Assembly: GCA_965224485.1 (NCBI GenBank)
Contig: CBDCZH010000018.1
Location: 32,001 to 96,000, forward strand
Length of the DNA stretch: 64,000 bases
Source: Arcobacteraceae bacterium
Lineage (GTDB): Bacteria > Campylobacterota > Campylobacteria > Campylobacterales > Arcobacteraceae
Reading direction: 5' to 3'
The notes below the pieces were generated by a model, which was given only the letters and a program-made list of their open reading frames with translations, did no database searches and was not told the origin of the DNA. The translations under genes were made by a program, and so were the position numbers. Shown here in pieces: positions 11,116 to 64,000 of the stretch. Each line of letters opens with the position of its first letter. Position 1 is the first letter of the stretch.

Positions 11116-11187
11116 AACATTCTTCCTTAATTATTAATTGCGATATTATATCTAAGAGTTAATATATATGTCATTAATGAAATTTAC

Positions 11188-12468: not shown

Positions 12469-12582
12469 ATGGACTCTTTATTTTTTAATAATTTAAAATA
12501 ACATATTTTGTATAAAGACTAAGAACATTAATTTTTCTTATGATAATAGTTATTAAAATTGATATTTAATGTATAATACAAG

Positions 12583-45765: not shown

Positions 45766-45767
45766 TA

Positions 45768-45796
45768 ATTAACAGCTGAATTCTTCTGCTGTTAAT
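45768..45796 (+). terminator. Hairpin after the peroxidase gene
   Basis: ATTAACAGC...GCTGTTAAT. Confidence 0.45.
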
Positions 45797-45860
45797 AATA
45801 AGTAAAGTATTATTTTTATAGTATTTTGATATTAAGAGTCAATCGCAAAAAAGGAATTAT

Positions 45861-46430
45861 ATGAAAGTTTTAAAAAAAGTAGTTTTATTACTTGTTTTTT
45901 GTTTATTTACATTCTCTTCTTTAGAGGCTTATTCATATGCTTCAGCAGGAAAAGAACCAACATTAGATGCACAAGATGCAATTTTAAATGCCATAAATGA
46001 AAGTGATTTTAAAAAAGCTAATGATACTTTTGTTTTATATAAGAAAAACTATCAATATTTAAATGATGATTTTAATAATAAACTTTATTCATCTTTGCAA
46101 AATGCAATAAAAGCAAAAGATAAAAAACTTATAGTTAAGTGGTTAAGAGTTTCACTTGCTCTTGAAGTTCAAAGACGACTTGAGGGTGGTTTAGAAAATA
46201 TAAGTACTTTTAATGTTTCAAAAGTAATGCTTGCAAAAGCTAATAAATTTTATAAAATCTTATCAGGTAGTTTAGAATTCAAAACTAATAAAAAGCTAAA
46301 AAAAGCTATAAAAAACTGTATTGGTGCTATTGGTAATCCTGGACTTTTTGGTGTTGGGGCTAAAAAAGCTAATATAAAAGAATACAAAAAAAATCAAAAT
46401 ATTGCAGTTGAAATTCTAAAATCTTTATAA
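45861..46430 (+). CDS. Secreted helical hypothetical protein
   Basis: Signal peptide LEA/YSYASAGKEP; GNPGLFGVG. Confidence 0.8.
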   Translation: MKVLKKVVLLLVFCLFTFSSLEAYSYASAGKEPTLDAQDAILNAINESDFKKANDTFVLYKKNYQYLNDDFNNKLYSSLQNAIKAKDKKLIVKWLRVSLALEVQRRLEGGLENISTFNVSKVMLAKANKFYKILSGSLEFKTNKKLKKAIKNCIGAIGNPGLFGVGAKKANIKEYKKNQNIAVEILKSL

Positions 46431-47663
46431 ATGAAATTTCATAAAATTATTATAGGTATAAGCACTCTAGCTTATGCCTATTTTATTTTATCTTACCCTA
46501 TATCTTATTATAATGATGATTCTTTATTTCTCTCTCGTGGAATTGAACATTTTTCTGTTATAGATTTCTCCCCACACTTTCCAGGTTATGTTTCTTTAAT
46601 ACTCCTAGCAAAGTTTATAAATTTTTTTCTTTTAGATGTTAAGTTATCACTTTTTGCTCTTAGCTCTTTTTGTGCTATTTTCACTCCTTTTATAATCTAT
46701 TTGTATGTTAAAAAAATCAAAAACAAAGATGTAGCTCTTATAGCTTTTTTTCTAAGCCTAAGCTCCCCTTATCTAAATAATTTTGCTCTCTCACTACTTT
46801 CTGATTCTGTTGGTTTTTTCTTCTTATTTTTAGCTCTATATTTATTAGAAGATAAAAAATATAAAATGAGTGGAATAATTTTAAGCCTTGCTTTTTTTGC
46901 AAGACCTTCTTATTTTGTATTTTATGCCTTTGGTTTACTGTATTTAGTTTTTTTTAGAAAAGAAGCTTTGAAAAGTATTCTCATCTATTTTTTCCTAAGT
47001 TTTATTCTATTTTTTTTATATATTTATATAACAAATGGCAATTTATATTTTATAGAAGCAAAAAGGTTTATCTTAGGTCATTTTAATATTTGGGGTGTAG
47101 GACAGAACTCTTCTTATACTTGGTTCTCAAATGTTTTCACGTTGATAAATCTTCCTTTTTTACTTCTTTTTATTTTTAAATATGATAAAAAATTTATCTT
47201 AATGTATATATTTTTTATATCTTATTTTTTATGGATTATTTTTTATCAAAATCCTGAAAATTTACGTCATTTAATTCCCTTAGTTTTTATAAGTACAATA
47301 TTAATCTCAAAGGTTTTAGAAAATTTCAAAAGTATAGTTTTCTTTATTTTGATTTTAAATATTTCTTTTATGTTTAGTTTTACTCAAAAATATTCACCTA
47401 TTATGCAAATTTCTAAACTTATTAATAAAGAAAAATTTATTCTTGTTACAAATCACTCTATAGAGCTCTTGCGTGAGTCAAATTTCCTTGTGGTAGATAA
47501 GTTTTATAAGGCAAATGCTTCGTATATTAGTAAAAACGATAATGTTATTATAATAACAACAGCAAAGAAGGAACTTCCTAAGTCAAGAGCCTTTTTTGGG
47601 AGGTTTATAGGTGAAAGAACTACATATCTTTATTCTAAAATCCCTCTAAACGCCACTAAGTAG
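46431..47663 (+). CDS. Multi-pass membrane protein, GT-C (PMT-like) glycosyltransferase-like
   Basis: NDD after the first TM, PHFPGY, LLSD, ARP, RHLIP. Confidence 0.6.
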   Translation: MKFHKIIIGISTLAYAYFILSYPISYYNDDSLFLSRGIEHFSVIDFSPHFPGYVSLILLAKFINFFLLDVKLSLFALSSFCAIFTPFIIYLYVKKIKNKDVALIAFFLSLSSPYLNNFALSLLSDSVGFFFLFLALYLLEDKKYKMSGIILSLAFFARPSYFVFYAFGLLYLVFFRKEALKSILIYFFLSFILFFLYIYITNGNLYFIEAKRFILGHFNIWGVGQNSSYTWFSNVFTLINLPFLLLFIFKYDKKFILMYIFFISYFLWIIFYQNPENLRHLIPLVFISTILISKVLENFKSIVFFILILNISFMFSFTQKYSPIMQISKLINKEKFILVTNHSIELLRESNFLVVDKFYKANASYISKNDNVIIITTAKKELPKSRAFFGRFIGERTTYLYSKIPLNATK

Positions 47664-47687
47664 TCACTGGATAAAGTTTTTCCTTTA

Positions 47688-47702
47688 TGATAATAATTCT
47701 TA
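47688..47702. promoter_or_regulatory. Fur-like box
   Basis: TGATAAT-A-ATTCTTA. Confidence 0.6.
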
Positions 47703-47769
47703 TTTTAAGTATTAATTAAGATTTATTAGCTTAAAATTCAACCAAGACAATCTTATACTAAGGAATTAA

Positions 47770-49794
47770 ATGAAAAAATTAATTAAGTTATCAGTTGTTG
47801 CGTCATTAATTGCAACATCTGTTTATGCAAGTGATTATAAGAGTACAAAAACTTCTGTAATTGACAAAAGATTCGATACAGCAGGTTCAATGTTTGCTTA
47901 TACTGAATTTGAATTATCTGGTGAACCAATGTCAGAAGGTCTTGGACTTGATTTAGATACTTTAGATCCAAATGCAAGAAACCAACCAACTGAATTTGAT
48001 TATACAGCTGGAATTGAATCATATGAGTATTCAGAAGAAGCTATGTATGCATTAAATTACCAATCTAAAATGGGACCTCATTTAGTAAATGGTTTATTAA
48101 ATGCTAAACGTGGTGGAGATATGAAATCTTTAGCAAAAAGATTTATCAAATTTGCTAAAGCTACTGGAAATGATGCTTCTGTTTTACCATTAAATATGCA
48201 TCCAACTGCACTTCCATATATTTCAGGACTTCCAGAATTTGCACAAAAAGTTGATATGACTGTTGTAAATAATGATGAAGTTGTTGTATTTAAACATGGT
48301 AAAGAAAAAACTATTAAAACAGCAGTTCCTGCTTATTTAAGAGATTATAAAACTTTATCTTGGGTTGAAAAAGGTATGGATAAAACATTTAATCCAGCTG
48401 CATTTGGAGCTGCTTTATTAAAAGATACTATGTGGGCACAAGATTTCTTAGGTGGAATGCATATTATTGCTAATGATGAAGAAGTAGAAGCAACAAGTTC
48501 AACTATGGATCAAGATGGTAAACATGCTCTTGGTGTTTCATCAGCTGATGGTGTAAATGGGGCTATTTTAACTGAACTTTCTTGGGAAAGAATTCTTTTC
48601 ATGCAAGAGAAATTAGGATCTAATGGTAAAAAATTAGGTTTAAGTTTTACTCCTTCATATGATGCAAGTAAACCAGTATGGTTTGCACATAAAGTATCTG
48701 TTAAAGAAGGTAAAAAGAATGGTACTAAAAGTATTGCTTCTTTAAAAATCAAAGAAGGACATTCTTCTCTTAGAGATACTTGGCAAGTATTATGGCCAAT
48801 TGCTGAATTCTATGCTTATTCTGATCAAAGAGTTAACAATGCTAATCAAAATCCAGCATTTTTAAGTGTATTTGATGGTGACCCTTTCAAAAAAGCACCT
48901 AAAGCAAATGTGGATGCTAAAAGAGGAAATGATATCAAAGCTGATGATGCTTTCTCTGTTGCTGCAAATATTGCTAACTTAATGTTTGAAAATATTTCAA
49001 CTATCCATTACAATAAAAAAATGGGAACATTTGTTGATACATTTGATGGCAAAAAAGGTAACATAGTTACAACTTTTGATGCTGCTTATTCTATTGAAGC
49101 TTTAAGAATTTTCCAAAGAGCTATTGATGCTTTACCAGTTGGTTATGGATCTGCTGATGGTGCTAAATCATTAGAAACAGCTCAGGGTAAAGAAGCTTTA
49201 ATGTTAATCAAAAAACAAGCTGATTTCTTAATTAAAAATCTTAAAAACAAAAATGGTTTATATTCAAGTGCTTATAACTTAAAATCTTCTGCTAAAACTG
49301 GTCTTACTGTTGGAACACAATTCGCAGTAGTTCGTGGATTAACAGCTGCTTATTTAGCAACTAAAACTGAAATGTACAGAAGCGAAGCTCGAGCTTTAAT
49401 GATTTCAATTGAAAAAAATATGTTTGATAAAAACATAGGAACTTATGTTGATTCAACAAAAGAATATACTCCTTACTCAATTGGTGCAGTTAGTGGTGGT
49501 TTAAGAGATGCTATTAATCATTTAAAAAATGTAGGTAGCGAAAAAGCTCCATCATTAGAATTAAAAAATCTTACTGATAGATTTACAAGATGGTTCCAAT
49601 TAGTTATTAATGGAAACTCAACAACTGAGGGTGCTCAATTAGCTGAATGGTTACTTGATACTGGTGAGTTTGTTGATGCAAGTGATATGAAAAATGCAAA
49701 TAGTGATGGTGATAATGTTGTATCTGTTACAGCAGCTGGTGGTAAATATGGTACTGCTATGACTATGGCTTCTAAAGTTAAACTTTCAAAATAA
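47770..49794 (+). CDS. Large secreted protein of unknown function
   Basis: Signal peptide VYA/S; acidic motifs YTEFELSGEP and GIESYEYSEEAMY; strong RBS. Confidence 0.85.
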   Translation: MKKLIKLSVVASLIATSVYASDYKSTKTSVIDKRFDTAGSMFAYTEFELSGEPMSEGLGLDLDTLDPNARNQPTEFDYTAGIESYEYSEEAMYALNYQSKMGPHLVNGLLNAKRGGDMKSLAKRFIKFAKATGNDASVLPLNMHPTALPYISGLPEFAQKVDMTVVNNDEVVVFKHGKEKTIKTAVPAYLRDYKTLSWVEKGMDKTFNPAAFGAALLKDTMWAQDFLGGMHIIANDEEVEATSSTMDQDGKHALGVSSADGVNGAILTELSWERILFMQEKLGSNGKKLGLSFTPSYDASKPVWFAHKVSVKEGKKNGTKSIASLKIKEGHSSLRDTWQVLWPIAEFYAYSDQRVNNANQNPAFLSVFDGDPFKKAPKANVDAKRGNDIKADDAFSVAANIANLMFENISTIHYNKKMGTFVDTFDGKKGNIVTTFDAAYSIEALRIFQRAIDALPVGYGSADGAKSLETAQGKEALMLIKKQADFLIKNLKNKNGLYSSAYNLKSSAKTGLTVGTQFAVVRGLTAAYLATKTEMYRSEARALMISIEKNMFDKNIGTYVDSTKEYTPYSIGAVSGGLRDAINHLKNVGSEKAPSLELKNLTDRFTRWFQLVINGNSTTEGAQLAEWLLDTGEFVDASDMKNANSDGDNVVSVTAAGGKYGTAMTMASKVKLSK

Positions 49795-49822
49795 TTTTTT
49801 AAAAAAGTTATTTTGCACAAAA

Positions 49823-49855
49823 CCCTCTAGGCACTACACCTAGGGGGCTTTTTTT
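49823..49855 (+). terminator. Rho-independent terminator
   Basis: CCCTCTAGG/CCTAGGGGG stem followed by a T run. Confidence 0.8.
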
Positions 49856-49963
49856 CTAATTTAATAATAATAACTCCCATTTTCACTATCAATAATCTTT
49901 GCTTTCTTTAAGAATAGCCGGCTATAATTTCATTATAATTTATTTTTAATAAAAGGTTAAGAA

Positions 49964-52900
49964 ATGAAAATAGCATATATAGAACTTTCAATTGTTCTAA
50001 TGTTTTTAACAGGTATCTTACAATGGGATTTAATAGATATTCCTTGGGTTTATTTTACTTTTTTACAAGCTACTCACATTATTGCATCAATTTTAGTTGC
50101 AGTTTTTTTAATTATTCCTTTCGTGAATATGCATACGTATAAATACAGAGTTAATATAATGGCTAGAAAAAGAAATAGTACAAATGGAATGATTTTAGGT
50201 ATTGTTTTATTACTTATAATTGCAAGTGGTGTTTACTTGTTTTTTGTAGGTAACAGAGGTGGAGATGATATAGGGTATTATTCATTTTTAATTCACTTAT
50301 ATGGTTCATTTTTATTACTGTTTTTCTTATGGTATCACTCTATGTTTTCAAATGCAAATATAAGAAGAAAAAAAGCAGCTAGAGAAAAAAGAGCAAAAGA
50401 GAATGCCCTACATGCAAAAATGGCAAATGTTAAAAGTTTTGCTTTTATTCTTTTAAGCATAGCTTTTTTATATCCAAGTTTAGCTTACTCAAGTGTAAGT
50501 TCTTCTGCTTTATATTTAAGCAAAGATTCAAAATATTTATACTCTGCTAACTTAGATGCTGGATCAGTTACAAAAATTGATGCTTTGAGTGGAAAAGTAA
50601 TTTTTGAGAAAGTTTTAGGAGAAGATATTAGAAGAATAGCTTTTAATAGTGATGAATCTGTTTATGCTGTAACTGATTATATGAAAGATAAAGTAATTTT
50701 TTTAAATAAAAACAATGAAATTATAAAAGAAATTAAAACTAAAAATAGACCTCATGCTATTATTTATGATGCTAAAAACTCTTACTTCTTTGTAACTATT
50801 TTTGAAGATAATGAACTTTTAGTAATTGATGATAAAAATTTTGAAATTATTAAAACTATTAAAACATTCAAAACTCCAAGAGGTTTGGCTTTAACTGATG
50901 ATGGAAGATTATTAGTAAGTCACTCTATGATTGGAATGGTATCTATTTATGATAGTAGATCTTTTGCAAGATTAAAAACTATTACTTTACATTCAACACA
51001 GAATAAAAATGAGTTTGTATCTCAAGGGAAACCTAGACTTTTAGATGATATTGAGATAAAACCAGATGGAAAAGAAGCATGGTTACCTCATGTTTTATGG
51101 AACTTTGACCATGCTTTTCAATTTCAATCAACAGTTTTTCCAAGTATCTCGATTATTTCTTTAGAAAAGGGACATGAAAAAGAGTTAAATGAAAAAAGAA
51201 AACATCTTTTTAAAGCAATTAATATTTTAAATAATGCAAACTCAACTATGATTGTATCAAATCCTTGGGATTTAGCTTTTTCATCTGATGGTGCAAAAGC
51301 TTTTGTTACCCTTGCTGGTAGTGAAGATGTTATGGTTTTAAATATTGGACGAAGCATGGGAAGTGCTAAGAAAAAAAGACATAGAAAAAGAGGAAAAAGA
51401 GCAGGAAAAGGTGCAAAAGTAACACAAATACTTAGAGCATATCCTAATAATACAAATCCACAAGCAATAATAACAAGTCCAAAGAGCAATGATATTTATG
51501 TACAAAATGCATCAAGACTTGATCTTACTTTATTAGATAGTGGTGGTAGCCATCCTTTTGCAAGACTTACAGTTAAAATAGACTCTTTTTCAAAAGTAGT
51601 AAAAAAAGATTTATTGGCTAAAAATATAAGAGAAGGTAAAACTTTATTTAATAATGCAAATACTAATACAAATAAAGAAACACCAATGGCAGGAGATTTT
51701 TGGATGTCGTGTAATTCATGTCATTTTGAAGGTTTTAACTTTACAAATGGTTTCTTATTTACTGATACAAAATTAAATAAATCACTTAAATCAACTATAG
51801 GGCATGATACCTTAAAGGGTTTTATTTCTAAAGATCCTTTAGGTGATTATGTACGAATAGCTAGAGATACTCAAGGTGGTATGGGAGCAGACGAAAAAGC
51901 AGAACTTACAATAGTTGACCCAGCTAAAATGAGTGCTAAGTTAAAAACTAAAATGCAAGCTCTTCATTCATATGTAAAATCAAAAGATAATTTACGTTAT
52001 TTATCTAACTGGATTAAACTAGAAGAAGATGTTGAAGAATACCATGTAGAAGATTGGACAAATTCTGCAAAATGTAAATCTTGTCATAATGAAATTTTTA
52101 ACCAATGGGCTGATTCAAATCATAGAAATCTAGTTGGAACTAACCCTTATTATATTGTTGTAGAAAATGTAGCTGCTCAAGTTGAGGGTGAAGAGTTTAG
52201 ACAGTGGTGTATGGGATGTCATAGTCCAAGTGCAATAACAACAGGTCTTGTTAAAAAAACAACTCATACTATGGATAAATTTTTTGAAAGTGGAGCAAAA
52301 ACACTAATAAATGAATTAAAAGTTCATGGAAATTCAAAACTAGAAGAGGGTGTTTCTTGTGTAGCTTGTCATAGAATTACAAAAGTTGAAGATGCAGGTG
52401 GAAATGCTGCTTATACTTTAGCTGTAAAAAGTAGACCTAAGTATGCTTTTGAAGATAGTGACAATGCAGGTTTACAATTTTTAAGTGAAAAACTAATTAA
52501 TTCAAAACCACAAAAACACATAGACTCATATATGAAACCAATTTATAAAAAAAGTGTTTATTGTGCAACTTGTCATGATGAATTTACACCTGGAAATGGA
52601 AGTAAAATTGTATCAACTTTTAAAGAGTGGGAAAACTCAAAATATAATAATCCAGATGATCCAAGTGAACATAAATCTTGTATAGATTGTCATATGACAT
52701 ATTTAAAAAATGATAAGTTATCTCCTTTAAGAGGTAGATCAACTGATGGTGGAAAAATTAAAGATGATGTAAAAGTTCATTATTTTGCAGGTGCAAATCA
52801 TTTCTTATCTGGACTTAAAAGTAAAGAACATGAAGACCAAACTTTACAACTTTTAAGAACATCAGCAAAATTAGATGTTAATGTAAAAGATGGAAAAGTG

Positions 52901-53350
52901 ATTGTTGGAGTTAAAAACGTAGGAGCTGGGCATCATTTACCAACAGGAGTTGCCGATTTTAGAGAATTATGGTTAGATATTACACTTAAAGATGCAAATG
53001 GAAAAGTTGTATTTGAAAGTGGAAAACTAAAAGATGATGGTAACTTAGATACAGATGCAAGACCATTTATGAAAGTATTTGGTGATAAAAATGGAAAACC
53101 AGTTGGACTTTTATTTTGGAAATATGAAAAACTTTTAAGTGATACAAGAATTAAAGCAGGGGAGAGACGAATTGAAACATATGATATCTCAAAACCTGAG
53201 AAACTTATTTATCCTTTAAGTGTTATAGTAAAACTAAATTTCAGAATTTATCCTCAGTGGGTTACTGATGCTGTTAGAAAAGCTTATCCTCAACTACCAA
53301 ATCCACCAGTAGTTGAATTAGAAAAAATAATGAAAGACTTTAGTAAATAA
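49964..53350 (+). CDS. Fusion of cytochrome-b-like TM domain, YVTN-type beta-propeller and multiheme cytochrome c (6 CxxCH)
   Basis: Four His-bearing TM segments, propeller repeats (TPRGLAL, NPWDLAFS), CNSCH, CKSCH, CMGCH, CVACH, CATCH, CIDCH, AGHHLPTG. Confidence 0.85.
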   Translation: MKIAYIELSIVLMFLTGILQWDLIDIPWVYFTFLQATHIIASILVAVFLIIPFVNMHTYKYRVNIMARKRNSTNGMILGIVLLLIIASGVYLFFVGNRGGDDIGYYSFLIHLYGSFLLLFFLWYHSMFSNANIRRKKAAREKRAKENALHAKMANVKSFAFILLSIAFLYPSLAYSSVSSSALYLSKDSKYLYSANLDAGSVTKIDALSGKVIFEKVLGEDIRRIAFNSDESVYAVTDYMKDKVIFLNKNNEIIKEIKTKNRPHAIIYDAKNSYFFVTIFEDNELLVIDDKNFEIIKTIKTFKTPRGLALTDDGRLLVSHSMIGMVSIYDSRSFARLKTITLHSTQNKNEFVSQGKPRLLDDIEIKPDGKEAWLPHVLWNFDHAFQFQSTVFPSISIISLEKGHEKELNEKRKHLFKAINILNNANSTMIVSNPWDLAFSSDGAKAFVTLAGSEDVMVLNIGRSMGSAKKKRHRKRGKRAGKGAKVTQILRAYPNNTNPQAIITSPKSNDIYVQNASRLDLTLLDSGGSHPFARLTVKIDSFSKVVKKDLLAKNIREGKTLFNNANTNTNKETPMAGDFWMSCNSCHFEGFNFTNGFLFTDTKLNKSLKSTIGHDTLKGFISKDPLGDYVRIARDTQGGMGADEKAELTIVDPAKMSAKLKTKMQALHSYVKSKDNLRYLSNWIKLEEDVEEYHVEDWTNSAKCKSCHNEIFNQWADSNHRNLVGTNPYYIVVENVAAQVEGEEFRQWCMGCHSPSAITTGLVKKTTHTMDKFFESGAKTLINELKVHGNSKLEEGVSCVACHRITKVEDAGGNAAYTLAVKSRPKYAFEDSDNAGLQFLSEKLINSKPQKHIDSYMKPIYKKSVYCATCHDEFTPGNGSKIVSTFKEWENSKYNNPDDPSEHKSCIDCHMTYLKNDKLSPLRGRSTDGGKIKDDVKVHYFAGANHFLSGLKSKEHEDQTLQLLRTSAKLDVNVKDGKVIVGVKNVGAGHHLPTGVADFRELWLDITLKDANGKVVFESGKLKDDGNLDTDARPFMKVFGDKNGKPVGLLFWKYEKLLSDTRIKAGERRIETYDISKPEKLIYPLSVIVKLNFRIYPQWVTDAVRKAYPQLPNPPVVELEKIMKDFSK

Positions 53351-53934: not shown

Positions 53935-54014
53935 AAATTCTTTAAAATCCTTACTCTTTCAAATAATAAACATAGTAAACTTATCTTATTATTCTAAATA
54001 ATAAAAGGATTTTT

Positions 54015-54461
54015 ATGAAAACTACACGAATTAAAAACTTAATACTTCAAGGACTTAGTACAAGAACTAATAATAAAAATGAAGCTGATAAAAAAACAGC
54101 AAAAATTTCTCCTTTATGGACTGAATATGTTGATGAAAATATTTATGCAAAAACATTAAATAAAACACATGATGATTATTTATACGGTGTTTATTCAAAC
54201 TATGAAAGTGATGTTAATGGTGATTATGATGTTACAGTAGCACTTGAAATTAAGAAAAAATCAAAAAAATATATTTTTATTGAAAATACAAAATATTTAG
54301 TGTTTTCAAAAAAAGGTGAATTTCCAGAAATCGTACTTGAATTATGGAAAGAAATTTGGGAATATTTTGAAAATAAACCAGAATATGAAAGAGAATATAG
54401 TATTGATTTTGAGAAATATGTACAAAAAGATGAAATAGAAATTTATATTTCAATAAAGTAA
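54015..54461 (+). CDS. GyrI-like/AraC effector-binding domain protein
   Basis: GLSTRTNN, YGVYSNYESD, LWKEIW, DFEKY. Confidence 0.87.
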   Translation: MKTTRIKNLILQGLSTRTNNKNEADKKTAKISPLWTEYVDENIYAKTLNKTHDDYLYGVYSNYESDVNGDYDVTVALEIKKKSKKYIFIENTKYLVFSKKGEFPEIVLELWKEIWEYFENKPEYEREYSIDFEKYVQKDEIEIYISIK

Positions 54462-54465
54462 AATC

Positions 54466-55242
54466 TTGTTTGAAATAAAAGATATAAATGATGAAAGAAT
54501 TAAAGAGTTTATATCTTTAAAACAATCTTCTTTAGATGAAAAATATGTAGTAGTTGAGAGTAAAAATGTTTTTAAAAAACTTTTTAGCAAAAACATAAAA
54601 ATTCATAAAGTTTTTACAAGTTTAGAAAACTGTGATTTTATAAATAAAAATTGCAAAAACATAGATTTTGAAATTTTCACTTCAAGTAATGAAATTATGA
54701 AAAAAATAGTAGGCCATAAAATACACCAAGGTCTACTAGCTTTAATATCAAGACCCCAATATATAAACTTTGAAGATATAAAAGGAAATGTAGTAGTTTT
54801 AAACTCTCTTACTTTTTCTCCTGAAAACGTAGGCTCAATTGTACGTTCATGTGCTTCTTTTAATATAAAGAACATAATAATAGATGAAAAAACTTGCTCT
54901 CCTTTTATAAGAAGATGTATAAGAGTTTCAACAGGTAATATTTTCAATATAAATGTATATAAATCAAAGAACCTAAAAGAAGACTTAGAAATTTTACAAA
55001 AAAATAATTATAAAATAATCTCAACAGCAAATACAAAAGAAGCAAAAAGTCTAAATACTTTTACCTTCCCTCCTAAGTCAGCAATCATAATTGGAAATGA
55101 AGGTTATGGTGTTTCTAAGGACATACTAGCCATGTCTGACGATGTTCTAAAAATAGATATAAGTGAAGAGGTAACAAGTTTAAATGCAGCAATTGCTAGT
55201 TCTATTGTCCTTTATGAGATGAGTAAAAATAAAACTAGCTAG
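54466..55242 (+). CDS. TrmH/SpoU-family RNA methyltransferase
   Basis: HQG, PENVGSIVRS, GNEGYG, SLNAAIA. Confidence 0.9.
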   Translation: MFEIKDINDERIKEFISLKQSSLDEKYVVVESKNVFKKLFSKNIKIHKVFTSLENCDFINKNCKNIDFEIFTSSNEIMKKIVGHKIHQGLLALISRPQYINFEDIKGNVVVLNSLTFSPENVGSIVRSCASFNIKNIIIDEKTCSPFIRRCIRVSTGNIFNINVYKSKNLKEDLEILQKNNYKIISTANTKEAKSLNTFTFPPKSAIIIGNEGYGVSKDILAMSDDVLKIDISEEVTSLNAAIASSIVLYEMSKNKTS

Positions 55243-55318
55243 ATATTTCTTTATTTAATTAATGTTTAAATTTAGAGACGTTCTGTGTTCGCTGTGAGGA
55301 CTTATTGTATCTTCTACT

Positions 55319-55597
55319 TTAAGGTTTATTTTTATTAAATATGTTTAAAATTATTATTGAGTTGTTATTTAAATCAACTTCATAAACGATAGTATATTTT
55401 TTAAAGGTCATATCTCTAATGTTTTCATCATTAAAATAATATGATTTTCTAAATTTATATGGATAATGTGGGAGTTCTTTAATTAGTTCAAATAAGTTTT
55501 TTCTAAATTTCTTTGAAGCTGATAATTTGTCTTTAGCTATATAGTCTAAAATTGAGTAAAAATTTATTTCAAATTTTTTATCAAGTTTAATTCTCAT
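55319..55597 (-). CDS. RelE/ParE-family toxin
   Basis: ILDYIAKD...PYKFRKS...YTIVYEV; overlaps the upstream antitoxin. Confidence 0.85.
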   Translation of the reverse strand: MRIKLDKKFEINFYSILDYIAKDKLSASKKFRKNLFELIKELPHYPYKFRKSYYFNDENIRDMTFKKYTIVYEVDLNNNSIIILNIFNKNKP

Positions 55598-55844
55598 ATT
55601 TTAATTCTAGTTCTTTTTCAAATTTATTTGTACTATTTTCAAAATCTTCAAATGAAGTTAAATTTCTATTTCCACTTTTTATATCACTTCTTATTTCTTG
55701 TAATTCTTTTTGTCTTTTATAAAAGTAAGGGTCAACTTCTAAATTTTTATCTTTTGAAATAGTGATATCTTTACTATGGTTATGAACATAACTCATAAAA
55801 TTTTGTACATAATTATCTTGAACTTGTACTAAAATTGTTTGCAT
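55587..55844 (-). CDS. Probable cognate antitoxin
   Basis: Small ORF with acidic C-terminus, overlapping the toxin start. Confidence 0.7.
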   Translation of the reverse strand: MQTILVQVQDNYVQNFMSYVHNHSKDITISKDKNLEVDPYFYKRQKELQEIRSDIKSGNRNLTSFEDFENSTNKFEKELELKYEN

Positions 55845-56120
55845 AACATTCCACCTATATTTTATTTATACACTATTATATCAAAACTAAAGTGATTTTA
55901 CTTTAGTTTTAAAGTTAGAATTAGGTTTGATTACACCTAGTCGTATTCCCTTGTATCAGTCAGTTTCAATTTAATTAATTTTTTTCTTGATAAATACAAA
56001 TACAATTTGCACTATGCTTGTCAAAACAATCTCATCTTTACCTTAGCAAAGTTTTATAACGTTTAATTTCAGCAAGGCTCTGCATTTGTTTCAAGATTTT
56101 GTTATGTGTTTTACTTAGTT

Positions 56121-56239
56121 AAAATAAAGTTGACTGTGCCTTTTATTCTTTATTAATAATTTAGTATCGTGTCCCCGGAATTTAAAAATAAAGTTGACTG
56201 TGCCTTTTATGCTTTACTAATAATTTAGTATCGTGTCCC
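56121..56239 (+). repeat. Tandem 55-bp direct repeat, period 64
   Basis: 56121-56175 and 56185-56239, two mismatches; each contains GTTGACTGTGCCTTTT and TTAGTATCGTGTCCC. Confidence 0.9.
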
Positions 56240-56271
56240 AGAAATTAATATTTTTATTAGCACTATTTTTA

Positions 56272-57267
56272 TCAAATACTATCTTCTAATATTTTTTGAA
56301 ATTCTTCTTTATTTGGTAAAACAGTTAGATATTTACTTGCATAAATTTGATTATTATCTTCTGGTAATGTCATCTCTACTAAACCATTACTTTTATCTTT
56401 ACATAAAATTATACCTACAGTTGGGTTTTCATTTTCAAGTTTTTCATACCTATCAAAATAATTTACATACATCATCATTTGACCTATATCTTGATGTTTT
56501 AACTTACCAATTTTTAAATCTATGACTATAAAAGATTTTAATATACGATTATAAAAAACTAAATCAACTGCAAAATGTTCTTCATCTATAGTAATTCTTT
56601 TTTGTCTTGCTACAAATGTAAAACCTTTTCCAAGTTCTAATAAAAAATGTTCCAACTTGTCAATAAGTTTTTGTTCAAGTTCACTTTCACTATAACTATT
56701 TTCTACACTTAAACCAACAAACTCTAGTATATAAGGGTCTTTTATCATATCACCAACAGATTCTATAATTTGCCCTTTAGATGACAACTCTTTAACTTTT
56801 GATTTATCACGGCTTAGCTGTAATCTTTCATAAATACCACTATTAAATTGTCTTTTAAGTTCTCTGAGTGTCCAAGAGTTATCTACTGATTCTATCTCAT
56901 AGAAATCTCTTTCACTAATATTTGAGATTCTTGATAAAAATATATAATGAGACCAACTTAAATTGAATTTGTGAGACAGTGTCTCGCTTTTTGAAAATGC
57001 ATTATAAAATAGTCTCATGTTTTTTAAATTATCTTCGGAATAACCTTTTCCAAATTCTTTGGTAAGTTCTACAGATAAGTTTTTCAATAATGCTTTTCCA
57101 TATTTAGCACGACTTTTTCCATCTTGTTCTTCTTCAACTATCATCTTACCTATTTGCCAATAGGTTTGTGTCATAGTTATATTTATAGTGCTATATACTT
57201 TGTTTTTAGCATTTTGTAGGAGTGTTTTTATTTCATTGTAAAAATTTGATTGTTTTTTTAAATTCAT
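56272..57267 (-). CDS. YhcG/DUF1016 PD-(D/E)xK nuclease-domain protein
   Basis: YWQIG, LSWSHY, KDPYILEF, LLELGKGF, DLVFY, IDLK, GQMMMY. Confidence 0.93.
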   Translation of the reverse strand: MNLKKQSNFYNEIKTLLQNAKNKVYSTINITMTQTYWQIGKMIVEEEQDGKSRAKYGKALLKNLSVELTKEFGKGYSEDNLKNMRLFYNAFSKSETLSHKFNLSWSHYIFLSRISNISERDFYEIESVDNSWTLRELKRQFNSGIYERLQLSRDKSKVKELSSKGQIIESVGDMIKDPYILEFVGLSVENSYSESELEQKLIDKLEHFLLELGKGFTFVARQKRITIDEEHFAVDLVFYNRILKSFIVIDLKIGKLKHQDIGQMMMYVNYFDRYEKLENENPTVGIILCKDKSNGLVEMTLPEDNNQIYASKYLTVLPNKEEFQKILEDSI

Positions 57268-57351
57268 TACTTATTATACCTTTATTTCAAATCTAATTTA
57301 TTTATGATATTAATTATTGAACCATAATATATTATCTCTTCTATAACTATT

Positions 57352-57564
57352 TTAATAGTAAATTTTATTTTGTAGACTTTTAAAATATTCTAGGAGTCTT
57401 AATTTTTGTTTATATTTCATAGATAAATCTTGACCTAATTTTAAATTCCATTGGTCAAGTATTACATCAACACCATTATGTCTTAATCTTGTTGCTACTT
57501 GCATCACCCAACTTTTGTGTTCATCATTATCATGTGAATATGATATAAAAACTTGTGATGACAT
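57352..57564 (-). pseudogene. Truncated TIR/SEFIR-domain gene
   Basis: VFISYSHD...WV...LRHNGVDVILDQW.L..GQDL, after which similarity ends. Confidence 0.75.
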
Positions 57565-57911
57565 AAAACTTCTTTTTTCTGTAAACATTACTATTTGTTG
57601 TATTTGGGTTTAATCAGTCACTTTGTTAGTTTATACTTTAATTTACTTAAAAATAAGAACTCATTAAAATATGCTCTACTCGTATGATTATTTGTACTAA
57701 AGAGTACAAATTACCATACTCCTATTTCTTAACGTGCAAACAGTTATGGCTGGGTTACGTAAATAAAGAAAAACTTACTCACGAGGTTTGCCTTGTGCTA
57801 AAGAGCACAAGTTTTCCTTCTTCCTCTGCTAAAGCAGATATAGTTCGAGCACATATTCATTCAAGGAATAAAAGATAAGTGTATTTCCTGCCCTAGGGGT
57901 GTGTAACTTCC

Positions 57912-57970
57912 AATTAATGGTGCCAGTCCCGAATGGCACAGCAAGGCTCTAAATTAATGGTGCCAGTCCC
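57912..57970 (+). repeat. Exact 19-bp direct repeat AATTAATGGTGCCAGTCCC
   Basis: 57912-57930 and 57952-57970; the second copy supplies the last codons and stop of the SMC-like gene. Confidence 0.9.
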
Positions 57971-59738
57971 CTTTTTCCTTAGTGATACCTAAAAACATTT
58001 TTTGTTCAAAACCTTCAAAAGTAGCTAACCATTCTTTATCATTTACATCACATTCATATCGATAAGATGTTGTTGAATATATAAGTTGTGCATTATAGAG
58101 GTTACATAATTTCTTTAATTCACCAAGAAACTCGCTAAGATCACTAAGGTCTAACTCTTGTTGTCTTGGAGTATCAAAAATTAAAAACCTAAGGCTATTC
58201 CTAGAAGAATTTTTTAAATATACTTCAAATATTGTTGCATGAATTGCTAATACAACCCTTATTAGCGTACTTCCTTGTATTTGACTAAGTTTTTCCCCAT
58301 TAAATGTTGGTTTAAAATCATTATCTATTTCAATATTCCTTGATACATTTTTTGTTTTTAATATATCTAACCAAAAAATTAGTTTTTCTTTCAGTTGAGT
58401 CTTAATTTCATATAATTTAGTATTAATATCATTTTTACCACCAGTCAAAGAAGCTATACTATCTTGAACTCTTTCTCTTTCTTTTACTCTTTTTGTTAAT
58501 TTTTTCTTTTCTTCAAAAAAATACTCATAGGATTGTTTAGTTTGCTCTAATTGAAAAACTTCTTTAAATAATTCATTTAAACCATTTACTATTCTCTTTG
58601 ATTCTTGAGTATCATTCATTTGGCTAACTTCGCCCTCAATTCTTTTGATATCATCTATTAAATTCTCTTTTGATTCATTTAACATCATGATTTCTTTTTG
58701 AAAGATAAAGGAATTCCGCTGCATATCTTTTATTTGATCTTTTAAATATAATAAATTCTTCCCATATGATTCTGAACTTTTCATAAATAAACCGCAGTTT
58801 TGAGAGTAACATATTTCATTAAAAGATTGAAATATTCTTTTAGACTCTTCATTTAAACTTAAAGTATTAATTTCTAATTCAATTTCTATTTTAATCTTCT
58901 CAAAACTATCTATCCTAGTTTCTAATTCCAAAATATTATTATCTATAAATTGAATTTTTTTCTGTTTTGTAAAAATTAGATTATCTAAGTTAATTATTAG
59001 ATCATTTTTAAGTGTTCTTGAATTACTAAGGTTGTCTATTTGGCACGTATGATTTTCTATATTTTTAATAATATCTAAATGATCTTTTTCAAAATCACCA
59101 GTTGAGGAGCTCATACTATCAATTAATTTCTTTGATTTTACAATTTTTTTATCTAGTAAGTCTTGTTGTGATTTCAAATTAAATATTTCTTTTTTTTGAT
59201 CAAATGAATGCTTTGGAAGAATATCAAATATTAATCTTATCATTTCACTATATTGGTCTTTTATAAATACTGAAGGCGCTTTATATAAGTTACTATATCC
59301 AGTATCTTGATTTAAAAATAATAAAGGTAATAATGTTGAGAGATAAGGATGAGTAGGTTCTTTACCAATTGAGATAAGTGTGGGATATTTTATATTCAAT
59401 AATTCAAATAAAAAAGAAGTCAATTTTTCTTCCATATAAAAAACATCCCTTTTATTTTTACTATAGAGTTCTACATGAAATTCTGTACAAATTTTTCTTT
59501 TTAATTGAATTTCTTCTTTATTATGTTCAAAATACAAATTCACATATTCACAATTTTGGTAAATGTCTTCTCTAAACTTAGCACTGTAACCTAACGCATA
59601 TACAATAAATTGTACTATAGGAGTTTTTCCAGATCCATTAAAAGCAAAAATTTGTGTAATATCATTACCAAATATTAATTCTTCTGATTGCCATCCTTTA
59701 CTACTAGATGATTCTATAAATAATTTAGTTAATTTCAT
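57954..59738 (-). CDS. SMC/Rad50-like ABC ATPase, Lamassu LmuB-like
   Basis: Walker A FNGSGKT, long coiled coil with C-x4-C, QGS signature, Walker B LIFDTP. Confidence 0.8.
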   Translation of the reverse strand: MKLTKLFIESSSSKGWQSEELIFGNDITQIFAFNGSGKTPIVQFIVYALGYSAKFREDIYQNCEYVNLYFEHNKEEIQLKRKICTEFHVELYSKNKRDVFYMEEKLTSFLFELLNIKYPTLISIGKEPTHPYLSTLLPLLFLNQDTGYSNLYKAPSVFIKDQYSEMIRLIFDILPKHSFDQKKEIFNLKSQQDLLDKKIVKSKKLIDSMSSSTGDFEKDHLDIIKNIENHTCQIDNLSNSRTLKNDLIINLDNLIFTKQKKIQFIDNNILELETRIDSFEKIKIEIELEINTLSLNEESKRIFQSFNEICYSQNCGLFMKSSESYGKNLLYLKDQIKDMQRNSFIFQKEIMMLNESKENLIDDIKRIEGEVSQMNDTQESKRIVNGLNELFKEVFQLEQTKQSYEYFFEEKKKLTKRVKERERVQDSIASLTGGKNDINTKLYEIKTQLKEKLIFWLDILKTKNVSRNIEIDNDFKPTFNGEKLSQIQGSTLIRVVLAIHATIFEVYLKNSSRNSLRFLIFDTPRQQELDLSDLSEFLGELKKLCNLYNAQLIYSTTSYRYECDVNDKEWLATFEGFEQKMFLGITKEKGDWHH

Positions 59739-60210
59739 AAAGCTCCAATTCAATTTTCTTTTCGGTATTAATATCTCTATATTTTCTATTAATTACATTT
59801 AACGTGTATGATAAATCATTTTCTTTAGATAATGTATAATCAATCACTTTTTTTCCAAGATCAGTTGATATTATCTTTTGTTTTTTATTATCAATAGTTA
59901 TTAAATTTGAGATTTCCAAAAAATTCAATGCTGTAATTGTTCTTATTCGTAGATTCGCAGACCAACCCAAGTGTTGAGAAGAACCTTTAAATCCCTTCAT
60001 GCTTAACTCTAAGCACTCACCAATTAATTGACCAAGAGAATCAACTTGAGGTTTTTTTCTATTCTTTGCCAAAAGTAATATAACTATAGATAAAAATGGT
60101 AATTGAAATAATGCTTCATTATTTAATAAAATTTCTTTACTTGTATTATTTATAGTTGCTATCTTAATATCTTTTTTTCGAACTGACTTTAACATTTTTT
60201 CAAAATTCAC
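59725..60210 (-). CDS. Small middle component, Lamassu LmuC-like
   Basis: 161-aa ORF translationally coupled between the nuclease and the ATPase. Confidence 0.65.
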   Translation of the reverse strand: MNFEKMLKSVRKKDIKIATINNTSKEILLNNEALFQLPFLSIVILLLAKNRKKPQVDSLGQLIGECLELSMKGFKGSSQHLGWSANLRIRTITALNFLEISNLITIDNKKQKIISTDLGKKVIDYTLSKENDLSYTLNVINRKYRDINTEKKIELELYEIN

Positions 60211-61378
60211 TGAGATAACCTCCGTACAAGAGATGATAATGCACCACCTAATAATAATTCATCAGTAATAACTTTTATTTTTATAGTTTTATTTAATTTT
60301 TCAATTTCTTCAAGTAATTTTTCAAATGAAATAGTATTTAATTCTGAACTATTTGAAACTGCCCTGTCTAATTTAGTTAAGATCTTATTTAATTCAAAGG
60401 GAGGAATAATATGTCTATTAGTTCTTAGCCATGTATCCCAATCAGTTTTAACCTTAGAACAAAATTCAAGTATCTCTGGAGACGCGACAGATAATGTTCT
60501 TTGAAGTATAGAGGCATTCTTAATAGCTTGTTCATCTCCTCCTTTTAATAATTCATTATAAACATTTTGAGAAATAGATAATATCTCGAGTATATCTTTT
60601 AAATTAATTCCACACGCATCATCTAATTCTTCTTTAGATAACTCAGAAATTTTCACTCTTGATTTTTTCTCAATTAGTGCTATTAAACTATCAGTAATTT
60701 CTTTTGATTCTAAATAATGTAAATCTATTTCACTATATTTCAAAATCTTAGTTCTTATTTTTTCATAAAAATCTTCAGCATTATCTTCCAATAAATAAAC
60801 ATTATTAGTATCAAAACATAATTTTTTTAAATGCTCTTTAATCTCATCCTCAAGGATAACTTTTCCCTTAGGAAGAAAACACTCATTAAACTTTTCAATT
60901 AATAACAAAGTAAATTTATTTTCAAACAGTTCTTTATCTATATCATCATTTATATTTTCAACATGGTCATGAATATTTATATTTGTTAAAAAAGTTATTG
61001 AGGAACAAGAAGATTTAAAGTTTACAGTATGTAGCAACATTTTACCAACAAAACTATCTTTTATTTTTTTAATTTCTGTTTTTTCTACAGCTACTTTTTT
61101 TCTTCTTGTATATAATCCAAAAATATCAGAAATACTCCACAAATGATTTTTTTTTGATTTAGTTTTAACTTGATAGAAATTATATTTATATTCCTTATCA
61201 ATTTTTCTCTAACAACAAAATCGTCGTGATAATCACAATAGACCATATCAACATTATTATTTTCAAGTATTTTGACAACTTCTAATGAAGCTGCTCTAAA
61301 TTGAGCATGAAACCTTTTTATGGTTTCTCTTCCCACTTCTTCTCTAGCCTTAATATCGTGTATTTCAATGTTATTCAT
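60207..61378 (-). CDS. DUF4297/Cap4-like dsDNA nuclease effector, LmuA-like (one frameshift at ~61200)
   Basis: GRETIKRFHAQ...YHDDF, and after restoring one A, YNFYQVKTK...WSISDIFGL. Confidence 0.75.
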
Positions 61379-61698
61379 TAATACTCCATAAAATTTACTA
61401 ACTTTAAATAATTATTTTTTAACTTAATTAAATGTATAAAGTATCCAACTTGTGTCACAATCTCCGTTATAAAGAACAGAATTGTGTCTTTGTATATTTT
61501 ATTTTAAAATTTTTTAAAATTTTCAAAAGAAAAAAAGTTATTTGATAATCAAATCCTTTTAAATTTTCTACACCACTCATTAAATACTCTTATACTTTTT
61601 ATATATAAACCTAAATTTATTATTTGATAATAAATTTAGTATTATGTCTCCATTATTTTTGTGGTCTTAATAACTTTGTATCCAATACCCCTTTGTGA

Positions 61699-61830
61699 AT
61701 CTAACGACCGAACTGAAGGACAAGTGGGCGAAACGACTTGACAGTTTGGTCTTTATATTTTTTTATTCGAGATTTAAAAGCTCAAATTTTTCGCCCTTTA
61801 CACTTATTCGTTTCCTGTGTTTTGTTATAC
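61699..61830 (-). mobile_element. Integron attC-like recombination site (132 bp)
   Basis: Minus strand R'' GTATAAC 7 bp after the stop, R' GTTAGAT; internal arms ATAAGTG..GGGCGAAA / TTTCGCCCACTTGT. Confidence 0.75.
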
Positions 61831-61837
61831 ATATTGA

Positions 61838-62585
61838 TTAATTGGAAAAACTGGGATCAAGAAGTTTATTTCCAGATTCTATTAGACTACCAATAAAACT
61901 TGAAATTCCATTGTAATATCTTTGCATTTCATAATCAATTTTTTGTAGATTTTCACCTTGGAGGGTAGAAAAGAAAGTAAATTCAGCTAATCGTGAACTA
62001 ACAATATCCCCATGCTTTATCGTATTATTAAGAACACGACATTCGTCAGCATCAGAATATCCATCTAATGTGTTAAGTATTATTGACTTTGTTTCGAATA
62101 GTGAAATTAGTTGATCCCAACGATAGGGAACGTTAATATTTTGAATGGGGTGTCCCAGTTTGTAGATGTTCAATATTAGCATAAACCTTTCCCATAAACT
62201 TTTCTGCAGTTGCCCATAAACCTATCACACTAAATTCATCAGAAAATCTTTTGCAACGATCTATGACAGCATCGTGAGTCATAAAATGACTATTAGTTTG
62301 GGATGCTTGATACGTGAAAAATTCTTTTTCTTCCTCTCCTACAACATTAACTTTGTCTTTTTTCTTTTTTTCTTGAAATAATTGAAATTGTATATCTAAA
62401 TTATCATTTTTTTTATTTAAATCATTGTATATGATTTGATGTAATCGAGCAAGGTCATGCAAATGCCAATCTAATTCAGATTGTAAGATTGATAGTGGAC
62501 CAGCAATGTTTGTCATATAAGAAATTGGCATATTTTCATTTCCAATTTGCTGTTCAATAGAGAGTAATGGCATGTATGTTGTCAT
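61838..62585 (-). CDS. Cassette-borne hypothetical protein (one frameshift in a C4 run at ~62150)
   Basis: ORFs 62133-62588 and 61838-62182 join as ...GTPIQNINVPYRWD...; AAGGA RBS. Confidence 0.7.
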
Positions 62586-62621
62586 CAAAGTTCCTTGATT
62601 ATTATAAATTTTGAATTTGTA

Positions 62622-62646
62622 GTATAACTACTTATTAGTAGAACAC
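62622..62646 (-). mobile_element. attI-like/core site opening the cassette
   Basis: Minus strand GTGTTCTACTAATAAGTA-GTTATAC; GTTATAC is the exact complement of the cassette's R'' GTATAAC. Confidence 0.55.
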
Positions 62647-62950
62647 TTTATACCTATTAACACAAATATTCAGTATTAATAGACATAATTTATGTACCTA
62701 TAATAATGAGAAATAGTGATATTTTGAATATTATGTTCTTTTTTCAATAATTTTCATTAAAATTGATGTCCATTTAAAGCTAAAATACTTGTTATTTGGA
62801 CAAAAATGTCTACTAATTATTGAATTTTGTGTTAAAAGAACATAATGTTCTTTTTAAAACTAAAGTTTAAATTTACACTTTAATAATAGTATACAAGAAA
62901 CGTGTCACAGTTTGTGTCACAAAAAAGAATAAAAGGATTAGATACTGAAC

Positions 62951-63701
62951 TTTTATAATTATTAGTTTACATATTAAAATAGTTTGAAATAACTGGTGTT
63001 TGCTCTTGTAAACTTTCAGTTCCCGCTTTCTTACTTTTGTATTGACAAAAAGTAAGCAAAAACAACTACGTTTCGGAGGTCTTCGACTACCTAAAGTTTT
63101 TTTATTTTCTTGCTTAGCCCTAAAACTCGTTAAAATATGCTCCCAGCATATTTTTTCACACTCAGACAGTTATGGCTGGGTTACGCAATAAAATAAAAAA
63201 ACTTTAGCTCCTGCAAATGTAGCAATCAACGGAATAATATTTTGTCTACTTCGTAGATATAGTTTTAATACATATTTAGAAATTTATTTTTATATTGGGC
63301 ATTTTGATTACTTGCTCTACCCCTGCCTTTGAGGAATCTAGAGTTTGAGAGTTTATTTTGCCTGCAAGCAGGATTTTGTCACTGCGTTCTAGCATCGGTA
63401 ATAAGGAAGTAAAGGAAACTTGTTTTAGCATAAGGAAAACTTTACGCGTCATGTTTGGAACCCGGAGGGCTTCAGCAACCGGCAGTCGACTTTTTTGTTT
63501 CTTTTTGATCGATAAAAAAAGATGCCTGAGCATAGCGATACAATCCTGTAAGGGAAAAAAGCGCGAAGGTTCACCTTTGTAAGAGTTCTAAAAGTCAAAA
63601 CTATATTAGGTTTTATAATTGTTAGTTTATACTTTAAAATAGTTTGAAATAATTGGCTTTTGCTCTTGTTGTAAACTTTCAGTTCCCGCTTTCTTACTTT
63701 T
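62951..63701 (+). repeat. ~90-bp direct repeats flanking a structured non-coding element
   Basis: 62951-63038 and 63611-63701 share AAAATAGTTTGAAATAA and GTAAACTTTCAGTTCCCGCTTTCTTACTTTT; long hairpin at 63091-63207. Confidence 0.8.
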
Positions 63702-64000
63702 ATGTGGCACATTTTTACTTTGTACTACTGGTGTATTTTAGCATTGCATTTAACAATATCCATACAATATTTTTGAAGAAGGGGAAGAAGAGTTTTTTTC
63801 TCAATTTAATTGAATATATGGGTATTGGAAATTTTACAAAATATTTTATGACTATACGATTAAAATACAATAAGGATATAGGACTTTCAAATGAAGAAAT
63901 TCCAAATAGTGATTTCTTATAAAAGAGTGAATTCCAATAAATATGCTATAATTAGGAATACATTCCTAAAAAAGGACTAAAATATGGATTCTATTTTACT

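Follow-up and report, generated by a model that had tools for sequence, protein, structure and literature searches.

The window analysed here is a stretch of 64,000 nucleotides from an Arcobacteraceae bacterium (Campylobacterota; NCBI GenBank assembly GCA_965224485.1, contig CBDCZH010000018.1, positions 32,001 to 96,000 of the forward strand), and the region of it treated below is a decayed integron-type cassette array with a toxin-antitoxin pair, a YhcG gene, a Lamassu defence operon and three attC-like sites. At gene boundaries of this island stand two pairs of short motifs (56158/56222; 57912/57952), which are the terminal repeats of TIRtrons, elements whose Y1 transposase is named TIRYT; the two pairs belong to two enzyme clades, and joints lie beside them at 57971, behind the Lamassu gene lmuB, and at about 56249, behind YhcG. 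The repeats are of a known family; the joints at their outer ends and their association with attC-like sites appear to be new. We consider it rather probable (about 0.6) that joints made by TIRYT at these repeats moved or re-fitted genes, a role in gene capture and cassette re-fitting that is probable but unproven.

TIRtrons have been described as Y1 genes flanked by GGGGWSAS inverted repeats (Di Nocera et al. 2013, PMC3733652), and TIRYT corresponds to TnpA-Y1 subclass 2.1 (Quentin et al. 2018, PMC6006769), or RAYT group 1. Read on the reverse strand, the window repeats match GGGGWSAS at 8/8 positions at 56176, at 7/8 positions at both 56240 and 57971 and at 6/8 positions at 57931. The repeats and their look-alikes in the window are as follows.

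56129..56144, + strand: decayed B/C-type end, first copy in a 62-bp duplication; by eye it resembles the type C ends found upstream of TIRYT genes
56154..56176, + strand: TIRtron end of type A, outer end at 56176, attC-like site on its inner side; profile score 38.8
56193..56208, + strand: decayed B/C-type end, second copy of the duplication
56218..56240, + strand: TIRtron end of type A, at a joint, with its outer end (56240) facing the 3' end of YhcG; profile score 35.0
57912..57931, + strand: TIRtron end of type B, the inner of the two tandem copies; in two other genomes (G016, G001) such ends flank clade-B genes on both sides
57931..57951, + strand: spacer between the B copies, made of a fold-back 9-mer and a 12-mer that repeats exactly the one in the decayed attC loop (56070)
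57952..57971, + strand: TIRtron end of type B, at a joint, outer end at 57971; it gives lmuB its last codons and stop, and homology to the metagenome contig L202 stops here at offset 0
61633..61651, + strand: look-alike of motif A in a palindrome of the Lamassu leader, no joint; score 17.7, within unbroken homology to L202

A check of the sequence found every string named in the first-pass annotation at its position on the + strand. When a profile trained on nine genome copies of motif A was run over the source genome (G000; 2.79 Mb, about 27% GC, 91.8% complete), it returned 14 matches scoring 20.8-38.8, nine of them the training seeds, against 0, 4 and 2 matches at or above 16 in three block-shuffled genomes, where the top score was 20.7; the reversed pattern gave no match in four of four sister genomes, against 9-16 real matches in each. 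Near copies of motif B occur on three further contigs of G000. A genome-wide scan thus bears out a dispersed A family, but not the whole list of motifs: the 56129/56193 motif has two genome copies only (at up to two mismatches), both inside the 62-bp tandem duplication (D3) that also holds motif A, and the 9-mer at 57931 has seven occurrences in the genome, folds back in the window on the preceding repeat and reads as an inverted piece, not a co-oriented one. The pair at 57912/57952 is a second local duplication. The co-orientation claimed by the annotation is therefore true of the + strand but rests on two independent tandem-duplication clusters, with the 9-mer inverted. Its exact 12-mer at 56070 and 57939 does exceed chance (a GC-rich 12-mer repeat appeared in only 2 of 1000 dinucleotide shuffles of 55901-62000), and this copy of an attC loop between the B ends suggests a local copying event. 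The supposed variant of motif A at 61633, on the other hand, scores within the shuffle range and lies in a palindrome inside unbroken homology to L202, which has no repeat there, so that Lamassu has a motif on one side only and not on both.

In total, 25 ends were counted in G000, 14 of type A, 7 of type B and 4 of type C; 23 of them lie outside open reading frames (ORFs), among toxin-antitoxin, restriction and insertion sequence (IS) genes. As had been proposed, they cluster at the boundaries of variable genes: 18 of the 25 have another end within 6 kb, where 2000 random draws gave a mean of 2.4 and a maximum of 14. The 6-7 bases beyond the end are conserved as well, which would place the crossing point between 0 and +7, and many type A ends of the genus are followed by a 7-mer that starts with GTT and resembles an attC core. 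Window ends have no GTAG tag and fold only weakly (-4 to -8 kcal/mol over 70-110 nt). Four identical sequences elsewhere in G000 (C16:107341 and 113468; C15:248374 and 450759), with a type A profile score of 16.5, are probably the end of a multi-copy IS.

The pairing of the repeats with enzymes was found in relatives and in other phyla. A Y1 transposase is present in 26 of the 61 genomes searched. Type B repeats bracket clade-B Y1 genes (221-222 amino acids) in G016 and G001, type A repeats, in tandem copies, bracket the gene of a 219-amino-acid clade-A protein in G023, in both cases inverted and pointing outward, and type C ends are found upstream of several TIRYT genes. The exact type A pattern matched at least 125 stretches from many phyla; among the 78 such loci with long flanks, 14 have a Y1 match and 64 have none in the flanking DNA examined, and in three a Y1 gene fragment abuts an end. 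On five distinct contigs of other taxa a full clade-A gene has an A end on both sides. The proteins are Y1 enzymes by their motifs, the HUH histidines and the tyrosine being invariant in 8/8 aligned proteins with a Y-x-x-x-N-P motif (one with A for P); Pfam Y1_Tnp (PF01797) was above cut-off in 3/3 proteins tested and the NCBIfam REP transposase model below cut-off. A helix-turn-helix domain, reported at the C-terminus of 20 described subclass 2.1 examples (PMC6006769), gave weak matches only, in a 257-amino-acid clade; clades A and B end, as in subgroup 2.1.1, in a conserved C-terminal extension with no Pfam match to that domain. Intact TIRYT enzymes occur in relatives (clade A in L033, at 10766-11425; clade B in L032, at 12099-12764; also L031), and G000 itself keeps a 3' remnant of a clade-B gene (C19:130350-130468), which is followed immediately by a B end and has an A end at the cut. 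The attribution of the motifs to RAYT-related HUH (Y1) transposases, necessarily acting in trans, was thus correct.

The placing of the repeats at gene boundaries by chance, or their service as operators or terminators in an AT-rich genome, is true of the 61633 look-alike and perhaps of the 57931 9-mer, but types A and B stand far above both kinds of control, shuffled and reversed, and flank Y1 genes as pairs in several phyla, by which this explanation is refuted for A and B and retains hardly any probability for the whole.

Two side observations concern these genes and ends outside the source genome. The TIRYT genes of G016, G001 and G036 (L031, L032, L034) lie, by eye, among apparent Rhs/haemagglutinin C-terminal fragments and small immunity-like genes. 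In other phyla (L054-L056, L050, L092, L106, L108) a type A end with a constant inner flank is repeated directly, 70 bp-3.4 kb apart, with new outer sequence each time.

Two joints in the window connect these repeats with genes. The Lamassu joint was read from L202, a metagenome contig and the one confirmed among 168 candidate stretches, which is 95.5% identical to window positions 57972-61725. On the lmuB side the homology ends exactly where the B repeat has its outer end (offset 0), at 57971; the native stop of lmuB is lost and its final seven residues derive from the joint, whereas a 97% homologue terminates in MFLGITK and a repeat-derived tail occurs in 0/120 homologues. At the other side the homology continues through 61633 and diverges beyond 61725, inside an attC-like site of which L202 has the core in common, and into a different attC-like site, as expected since a cassette start should lie there. 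YhcG has a repeat-free copy with 94% DNA identity in the sister genome G003 (contig C95), with which homology begins at 56249, 9 nt outside the A end (26 nt with stricter BLAST scoring). In G003 a long attC-like site follows YhcG and a short one precedes it, so that the gene was already a cassette, which in the window ends at a different attC by way of the A ends. The genes and attC-like sites of the island are listed below.

55260..55309, - strand: degenerate short attC-like site closing the toxin-antitoxin cassette; nhmmer 21.7 bits, E 1.1e-5 in the window
55319..55844, - strand: type II toxin-antitoxin pair; ParE toxin at 55319-55597 (Pfam PF05016, E 1.8e-11) and a putative antitoxin of 85 amino acids at 55587-55844, which has no family match and is so called from its position
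56054..56107, - strand: degenerate short attC-like site, with the 12-mer at 56070 as its loop region; nhmmer 32.2 bits, E 5.8e-9; aligned with five better-kept G000 copies
56272..57267, - strand: YhcG/DUF1016 nuclease-domain gene (PADLOC PDC-S02), a former attC cassette; 94% DNA identity to G003:C95
57352..57588, - strand: SEFIR/Toll-interleukin-receptor-domain gene, 5' fragment only; its fusion point with the YhcG leader, at about 57432, has no end-repeat
57589..57911, no strand: mosaic of parts of a long non-coding repeat rich in hairpins, lying inward of the B ends; many genome matches, no Rfam match
57954..59753, - strand: lmuB, Lamassu SMC-like ATPase; conserved part intact, seven-residue joint-derived tail; PADLOC E 1.3e-210
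59725..60210, - strand: lmuC; PADLOC E 3.1e-65
60207..61378, - strand: lmuA, nuclease effector (Cap4/DUF4297), its coding sequence divided between two frames near 61200; PADLOC profile match
61697..61829, - strand: full-length long attC-like site whose 3' core is the Lamassu cassette start; three related sites in G000 and G003

Read along the minus strand, the order is a split gene (61838-62588), the long attC-like site, lmuA-lmuC-lmuB, the two B ends, the hairpin-repeat pieces, the SEFIR fragment, YhcG, the two A ends, an attC-like site, the antitoxin-ParE pair, another attC-like site and the core gene spoU. The attC-like sites, three in number, thus lie between genes and all on the gene strand, and Lamassu starts at one of them in both of its known copies. 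Their family consensus has complementary ends and arms; the window copies are decayed and gave no end-to-end hairpin in minimum-energy folding. Neither the window nor G003:C95 yielded a site to a fold-based attC finder, and the matches to a loose pattern were mostly noise; the family profile was used instead. What the first-pass annotation took for an attC-like half site cut at a motif is the full-length site at 61697-61829. The annotation had also proposed a non-integron origin for the array, which is contradicted by the three attC-like sites, the Lamassu start, the attC-like sites around YhcG in G003 and a truncated integron integrase on another contig (TIGR02249, 278 bits, above cut-off, profile positions 1-86 missing).

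An integron integrase might itself have made the joints, with bases adjacent to the repeats serving as secondary sites and the ends as bystanders in an ordinary cluster of attC sites lacking an integrase (CALIN). The integrase remnant in G000, the attC-like sites of the array and the GTT-starting 7-mer after many type A ends speak for this, but the lmuB joint has a T run and no GTT core beside the end, the operon fragment described below is without attC, and identical flanking bases follow the ends of full TIRtrons in other phyla; we regard it as very unlikely. As to the integrase gene (G000:C19:178640-179911; L203, L267), its N-terminal third is missing and the long hairpin repeat precedes it, itself starting at a type C end. 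At seven further places a type C end that lacks the bases outside it runs directly into a short attC-like site, of which only the right half is present, with different sequence after each (G003:C14, C17, C202, C237, C6; G004:C86, C138; L256, L233, L244, L258, L255, L251, L250), and these hybrid sites resemble an attI-type insertion point.

Beyond the window, the arrangement of ends and attC-like sites was surveyed in the genus, that is in the whole of G000 and in selected island regions of four related genomes (G001-G004), which together contained 110 distinct TIRtron ends and 63 short attC-like sites; the latter were called from boundary cores and an nhmmer profile of 40 genus copies, and one duplicate locus was left out of the counts. 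Of the 110 ends, 21 have an attC-like site on their inner side, always on the same strand, and 4 have one on their outer side. Seen from the attC-like sites, 60 of which could be read upstream, 16 are preceded within 150 nt by an end on the same strand and none by one on the opposite strand, and an end lies downstream of 3 of the 63. In 58 of 81 cases it is the 3' end of the outer gene that points towards the repeat, and the stop codons of several outer genes lie inside the repeat or no more than 7 nt away from it. Inner flanks are common to copies and outer flanks vary; in a smaller set analysed before, where 76 ends had a homologue of any kind, the inner flanks ceased to match at offsets 0-19 for 16 ends and at 20-39 for none. 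A single unit, consisting of end A, a 21-nt spacer and an attC, is joined to five different outer neighbours (G001, G004). An attC-like piece joined to a type A end also appears in three sequencing runs of one study, which count as a single weak observation.

The ends also border a piece of chromosomal operon. In G001 a 1.4-kb fragment (the 5' end of eamA, an operator and a DHDPS-family gene) is bordered by a B end at a distance of 11 nt where it begins and by an A end at 5 nt where it stops, each of these ends paired with a second one as a mini-element; G002 carries the eamA/DHDPS unit between outer ends too, and the unit was counted once because the event is common to both genomes. Its DHDPS-family gene is 93% identical to the copy in a hydroxyproline-type operon of G000 and 27% identical to the native gene of G003 and G004. 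In that operon the native DHDPS-family gene is intact in G003 and G004 and a remnant in G000, G001 and G002, where a distant DHDPS xenologue replaces it, within the operon in G000 (C23:79883-81962) and in an island in G001 (C24) and G002 (C28); the aldehyde dehydrogenase and oxidase genes of the G000 operon are split.

HUH Y1 enzymes nick single-stranded DNA and transfer strands. In the mechanism that we favour, a TIRYT enzyme of this kind, no longer intact in G000, would nick single-stranded DNA, and the outer end of a repeat would be joined to AT-rich sites near the 3' ends of genes, ends or gene-less mini-elements thus being inserted beside gene ends. One-ended transfer, or a pair of mini-elements, would then swap or move the outer DNA, with the inner flank (often an attC or the long hairpin repeat) retained, and aborted local events would leave tandem end copies. 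YhcG would in this way have lost its own long attC-like site and would now end at a short one, Lamassu would have lost whatever followed lmuB, and the remaining joints may come from IntI, IS elements and ordinary deletions. That TIRYT builds defence arrays we infer.

The same ends could be passive debris: TIRtrons and their mini-copies would insert in tolerant AT-rich islands, often downstream of genes, and decay, host deletions, IS elements and IntI would remove the other end and the old flank, and the ends would have no part in capture or shuffling. Element-like inverted end pairs of 42-182 bp do occur in the sister genomes, the island is visibly decayed (split lmuA, degenerate attC sites, gene fragments), and the lack of an enzyme in G000 and the position of most breakpoints, given below, fit as well. 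However, one unit of end, spacer and attC beside five outer neighbours would require the same deletion endpoint again and again, and common inner flanks with varying outer ones, an operon fragment moved with both of its edges at outer ends, and an inner to outer attC asymmetry of 21 to 4 likewise argue against debris, which we hold to be possible but unlikely.

Several observations weigh against joints made by TIRYT. A long outer homologue exists for 42 ends; in 9 of these cases the homologue has the end too, and in 33 the homology breaks off, at 0-30 nt in 8 cases, at 31-100 nt in 10 (several of them tandem copies) and further away in 15; the expectation of the first-pass annotation that strain breakpoints would fall at the motifs thus holds for some (lmuB at offset 0, YhcG at +9) and fails for the 25 of 33 that lie beyond 30 nt. 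Five of the 8 close breaks are not clean, since two partners keep a decayed end, one keeps another end-like remnant and two are the starts of long repeats. An insertion followed by an unrelated deletion leaves an equal breakpoint at the outer end, and the SEFIR/YhcG joint at about 57432 has no end-repeat. In G000 the two A ends of the window, a single cluster, are the only ends (2/25) with an inner attC. Of the 110 ends, 24 have the long hairpin repeat on their inner side and 8 on their outer side, so that the ends are not attC-specific, and neighbouring ends (within 6 kb, five genomes) are co-oriented in only 40 of 66 pairs. The totals of the survey are inflated by sister-genome loci chosen for carrying attC, the inner/outer asymmetry being unaffected, and the related genomes G001-G004 are not independent of one another. 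Neither PF01797 nor a custom profile run in six frames had a match in G000 (91.8% complete), and the selected island regions of the sister genomes hold no clade-A enzyme; with no intact Y1 in the one and no clade-A enzyme in the others, nothing shows present-day activity.

In a bolder form of the favoured reading, one-ended single-strand transfer would attach an end with an inner attC behind some unrelated gene, at its 3' end, an integron cassette being thereby created or re-fitted with no reverse transcription, and paired mini-elements would also lift pieces of chromosomal operons. Cassette re-fitting (YhcG) and the capture of an operon piece (eamA/DHDPS) are each represented by one instance. 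No non-cassette gene newly joined to an attC was caught among the genes examined, and a search for an attC-free chromosomal source of genes joined to an end with attC, made with 17 proteins against G000 and sister loci, returned only distant paralogues, IS genes and near-identical island copies; one such pair breaks 431 nt from the end. We find this bolder form doubtful, and offer it as a conjecture.

Strain comparison of the whole island was limited by its distribution: no genome among 400 of the order has an LmuB match at E 1e-20, and hence there is no syntenic strain pair. The context of spoU differs in G003 and G004, where it is placed elsewhere, so that these genomes hold no empty site for the whole island. 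A plasmid search gave a single 142-bp match and nothing else.

The window ends are like described TIRtrons in that inverted GGGGWSAS repeats surround a Y1 gene, occur solo, as dimers or in groups at moderate abundance, have no REP hairpin and outlast the lost gene; they differ in that the distinct ends of two enzyme clades stand in one island, in polar placement beside attC. With REPtrons and the REPIN-RAYT system (TnpA-REP; PMC8266576) they share the enzyme superfamily, gene-less repeats derived from a gene-bearing locus, doublets and tandem clusters, but they have no GTAG tag or stem-loop, number tens and not hundreds of copies, are confined to accessory islands and are patchy across phyla. 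TnpA-REP cleaves and strand-transfers single-stranded DNA in vitro, near its repeats (PMC8266576). Like integron arrays and CALINs (PMC8618304), the island has co-oriented genes with attC-like sites, toxin-antitoxin and defence cassettes and a truncated integrase elsewhere, but unlike in these, some cassettes reach an attC at their 3' end through a TIRtron end and not through an attC of their own. All three Lamassu genes (LmuA-LmuC-LmuB) match PADLOC profiles strongly and form one operon, which departs from standard Lamassu by the lmuA split in the assembly and by the seven-residue repeat-derived tail of lmuB.

One-ended capture by ISCR/IS91 and peel-and-paste transposition by IS200/IS605 both use HUH chemistry on single-stranded DNA. 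TIRtrons are like them in the short conserved sequence outside the end and in that one end would move adjacent DNA. ISCR/IS91 elements have an oriIS/terIS pair and a Y2 transposase, and TnpB is a trait of IS200/IS605. TIRtron ends are set apart as inverted repeats with no subterminal hairpins that are paired with Y1 subclass 2.1 and not with Y2, and they have neither an oriIS/terIS pair nor a TnpB.

Some features of the neighbourhood remain to be described. The split of lmuA may be real decay or an assembly error: the gene is one base shorter than the intact 390-amino-acid copy in L202, and no contig piece listed spans the split at about 61200. At 61838-62588, two overlapping ORFs (151 and 114 amino acids) with no Pfam, PADLOC or NCBIfam match, which end at the long attC-like site, are probably one split cassette gene. 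The hairpin-rich non-coding repeat is a family of 300-700 bp mosaics, present in the window at 57589-57911 and 62900-63720, with more pieces on at least 10 contigs and often beside IS genes; a 270-nt piece folds at -44.8 kcal/mol as DNA, the family has no Rfam match, and an Rfam scan of window positions 54000-64000 gave none at E up to 1. That these repeats are ends of the Y1 genes found no support: over 34 Y1 loci the only matches were one of 55 bp, present in two loci that overlap, and one of 34 bp. Left of the island, at 44617-53350, lies a cluster of cytochrome c peroxidase-like, multihaem and secreted proteins, judged from CxxCH motifs.

Subclass 2.1 is the second largest Y1 subclass and was present in 14.9% of sampled strains (PMC6006769). 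The accessible portions of the TIRtron papers (PMC3733652, PMC6006769) give no mechanism, role, biochemistry, cargo capture, outer-end joints or attC association, and our literature search, with subscription papers and supplements outside its scope, found nothing linking TIRYT to attC sites, cargo capture or biochemistry. On the integron side, cassette formation is named an outstanding question in PMC8618304, and PMC8946536 refers to a group II intron hypothesis. The joints described here define exact substrates (the end, its conserved outer 6-7 bases and the inner attC), which together with the enzymes of relatives make both questions, the role of TIRYT and the origin of cassettes, testable in a cleavage/strand-transfer assay that already exists. 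If the passive reading holds, the region is an ordinary decayed defence island with known repeats. If cassettes are made at the ends as conjectured above, new integron cassettes could arise by a route through DNA alone, and a Y1 class present in about 15% of the strains sampled would have its first function.

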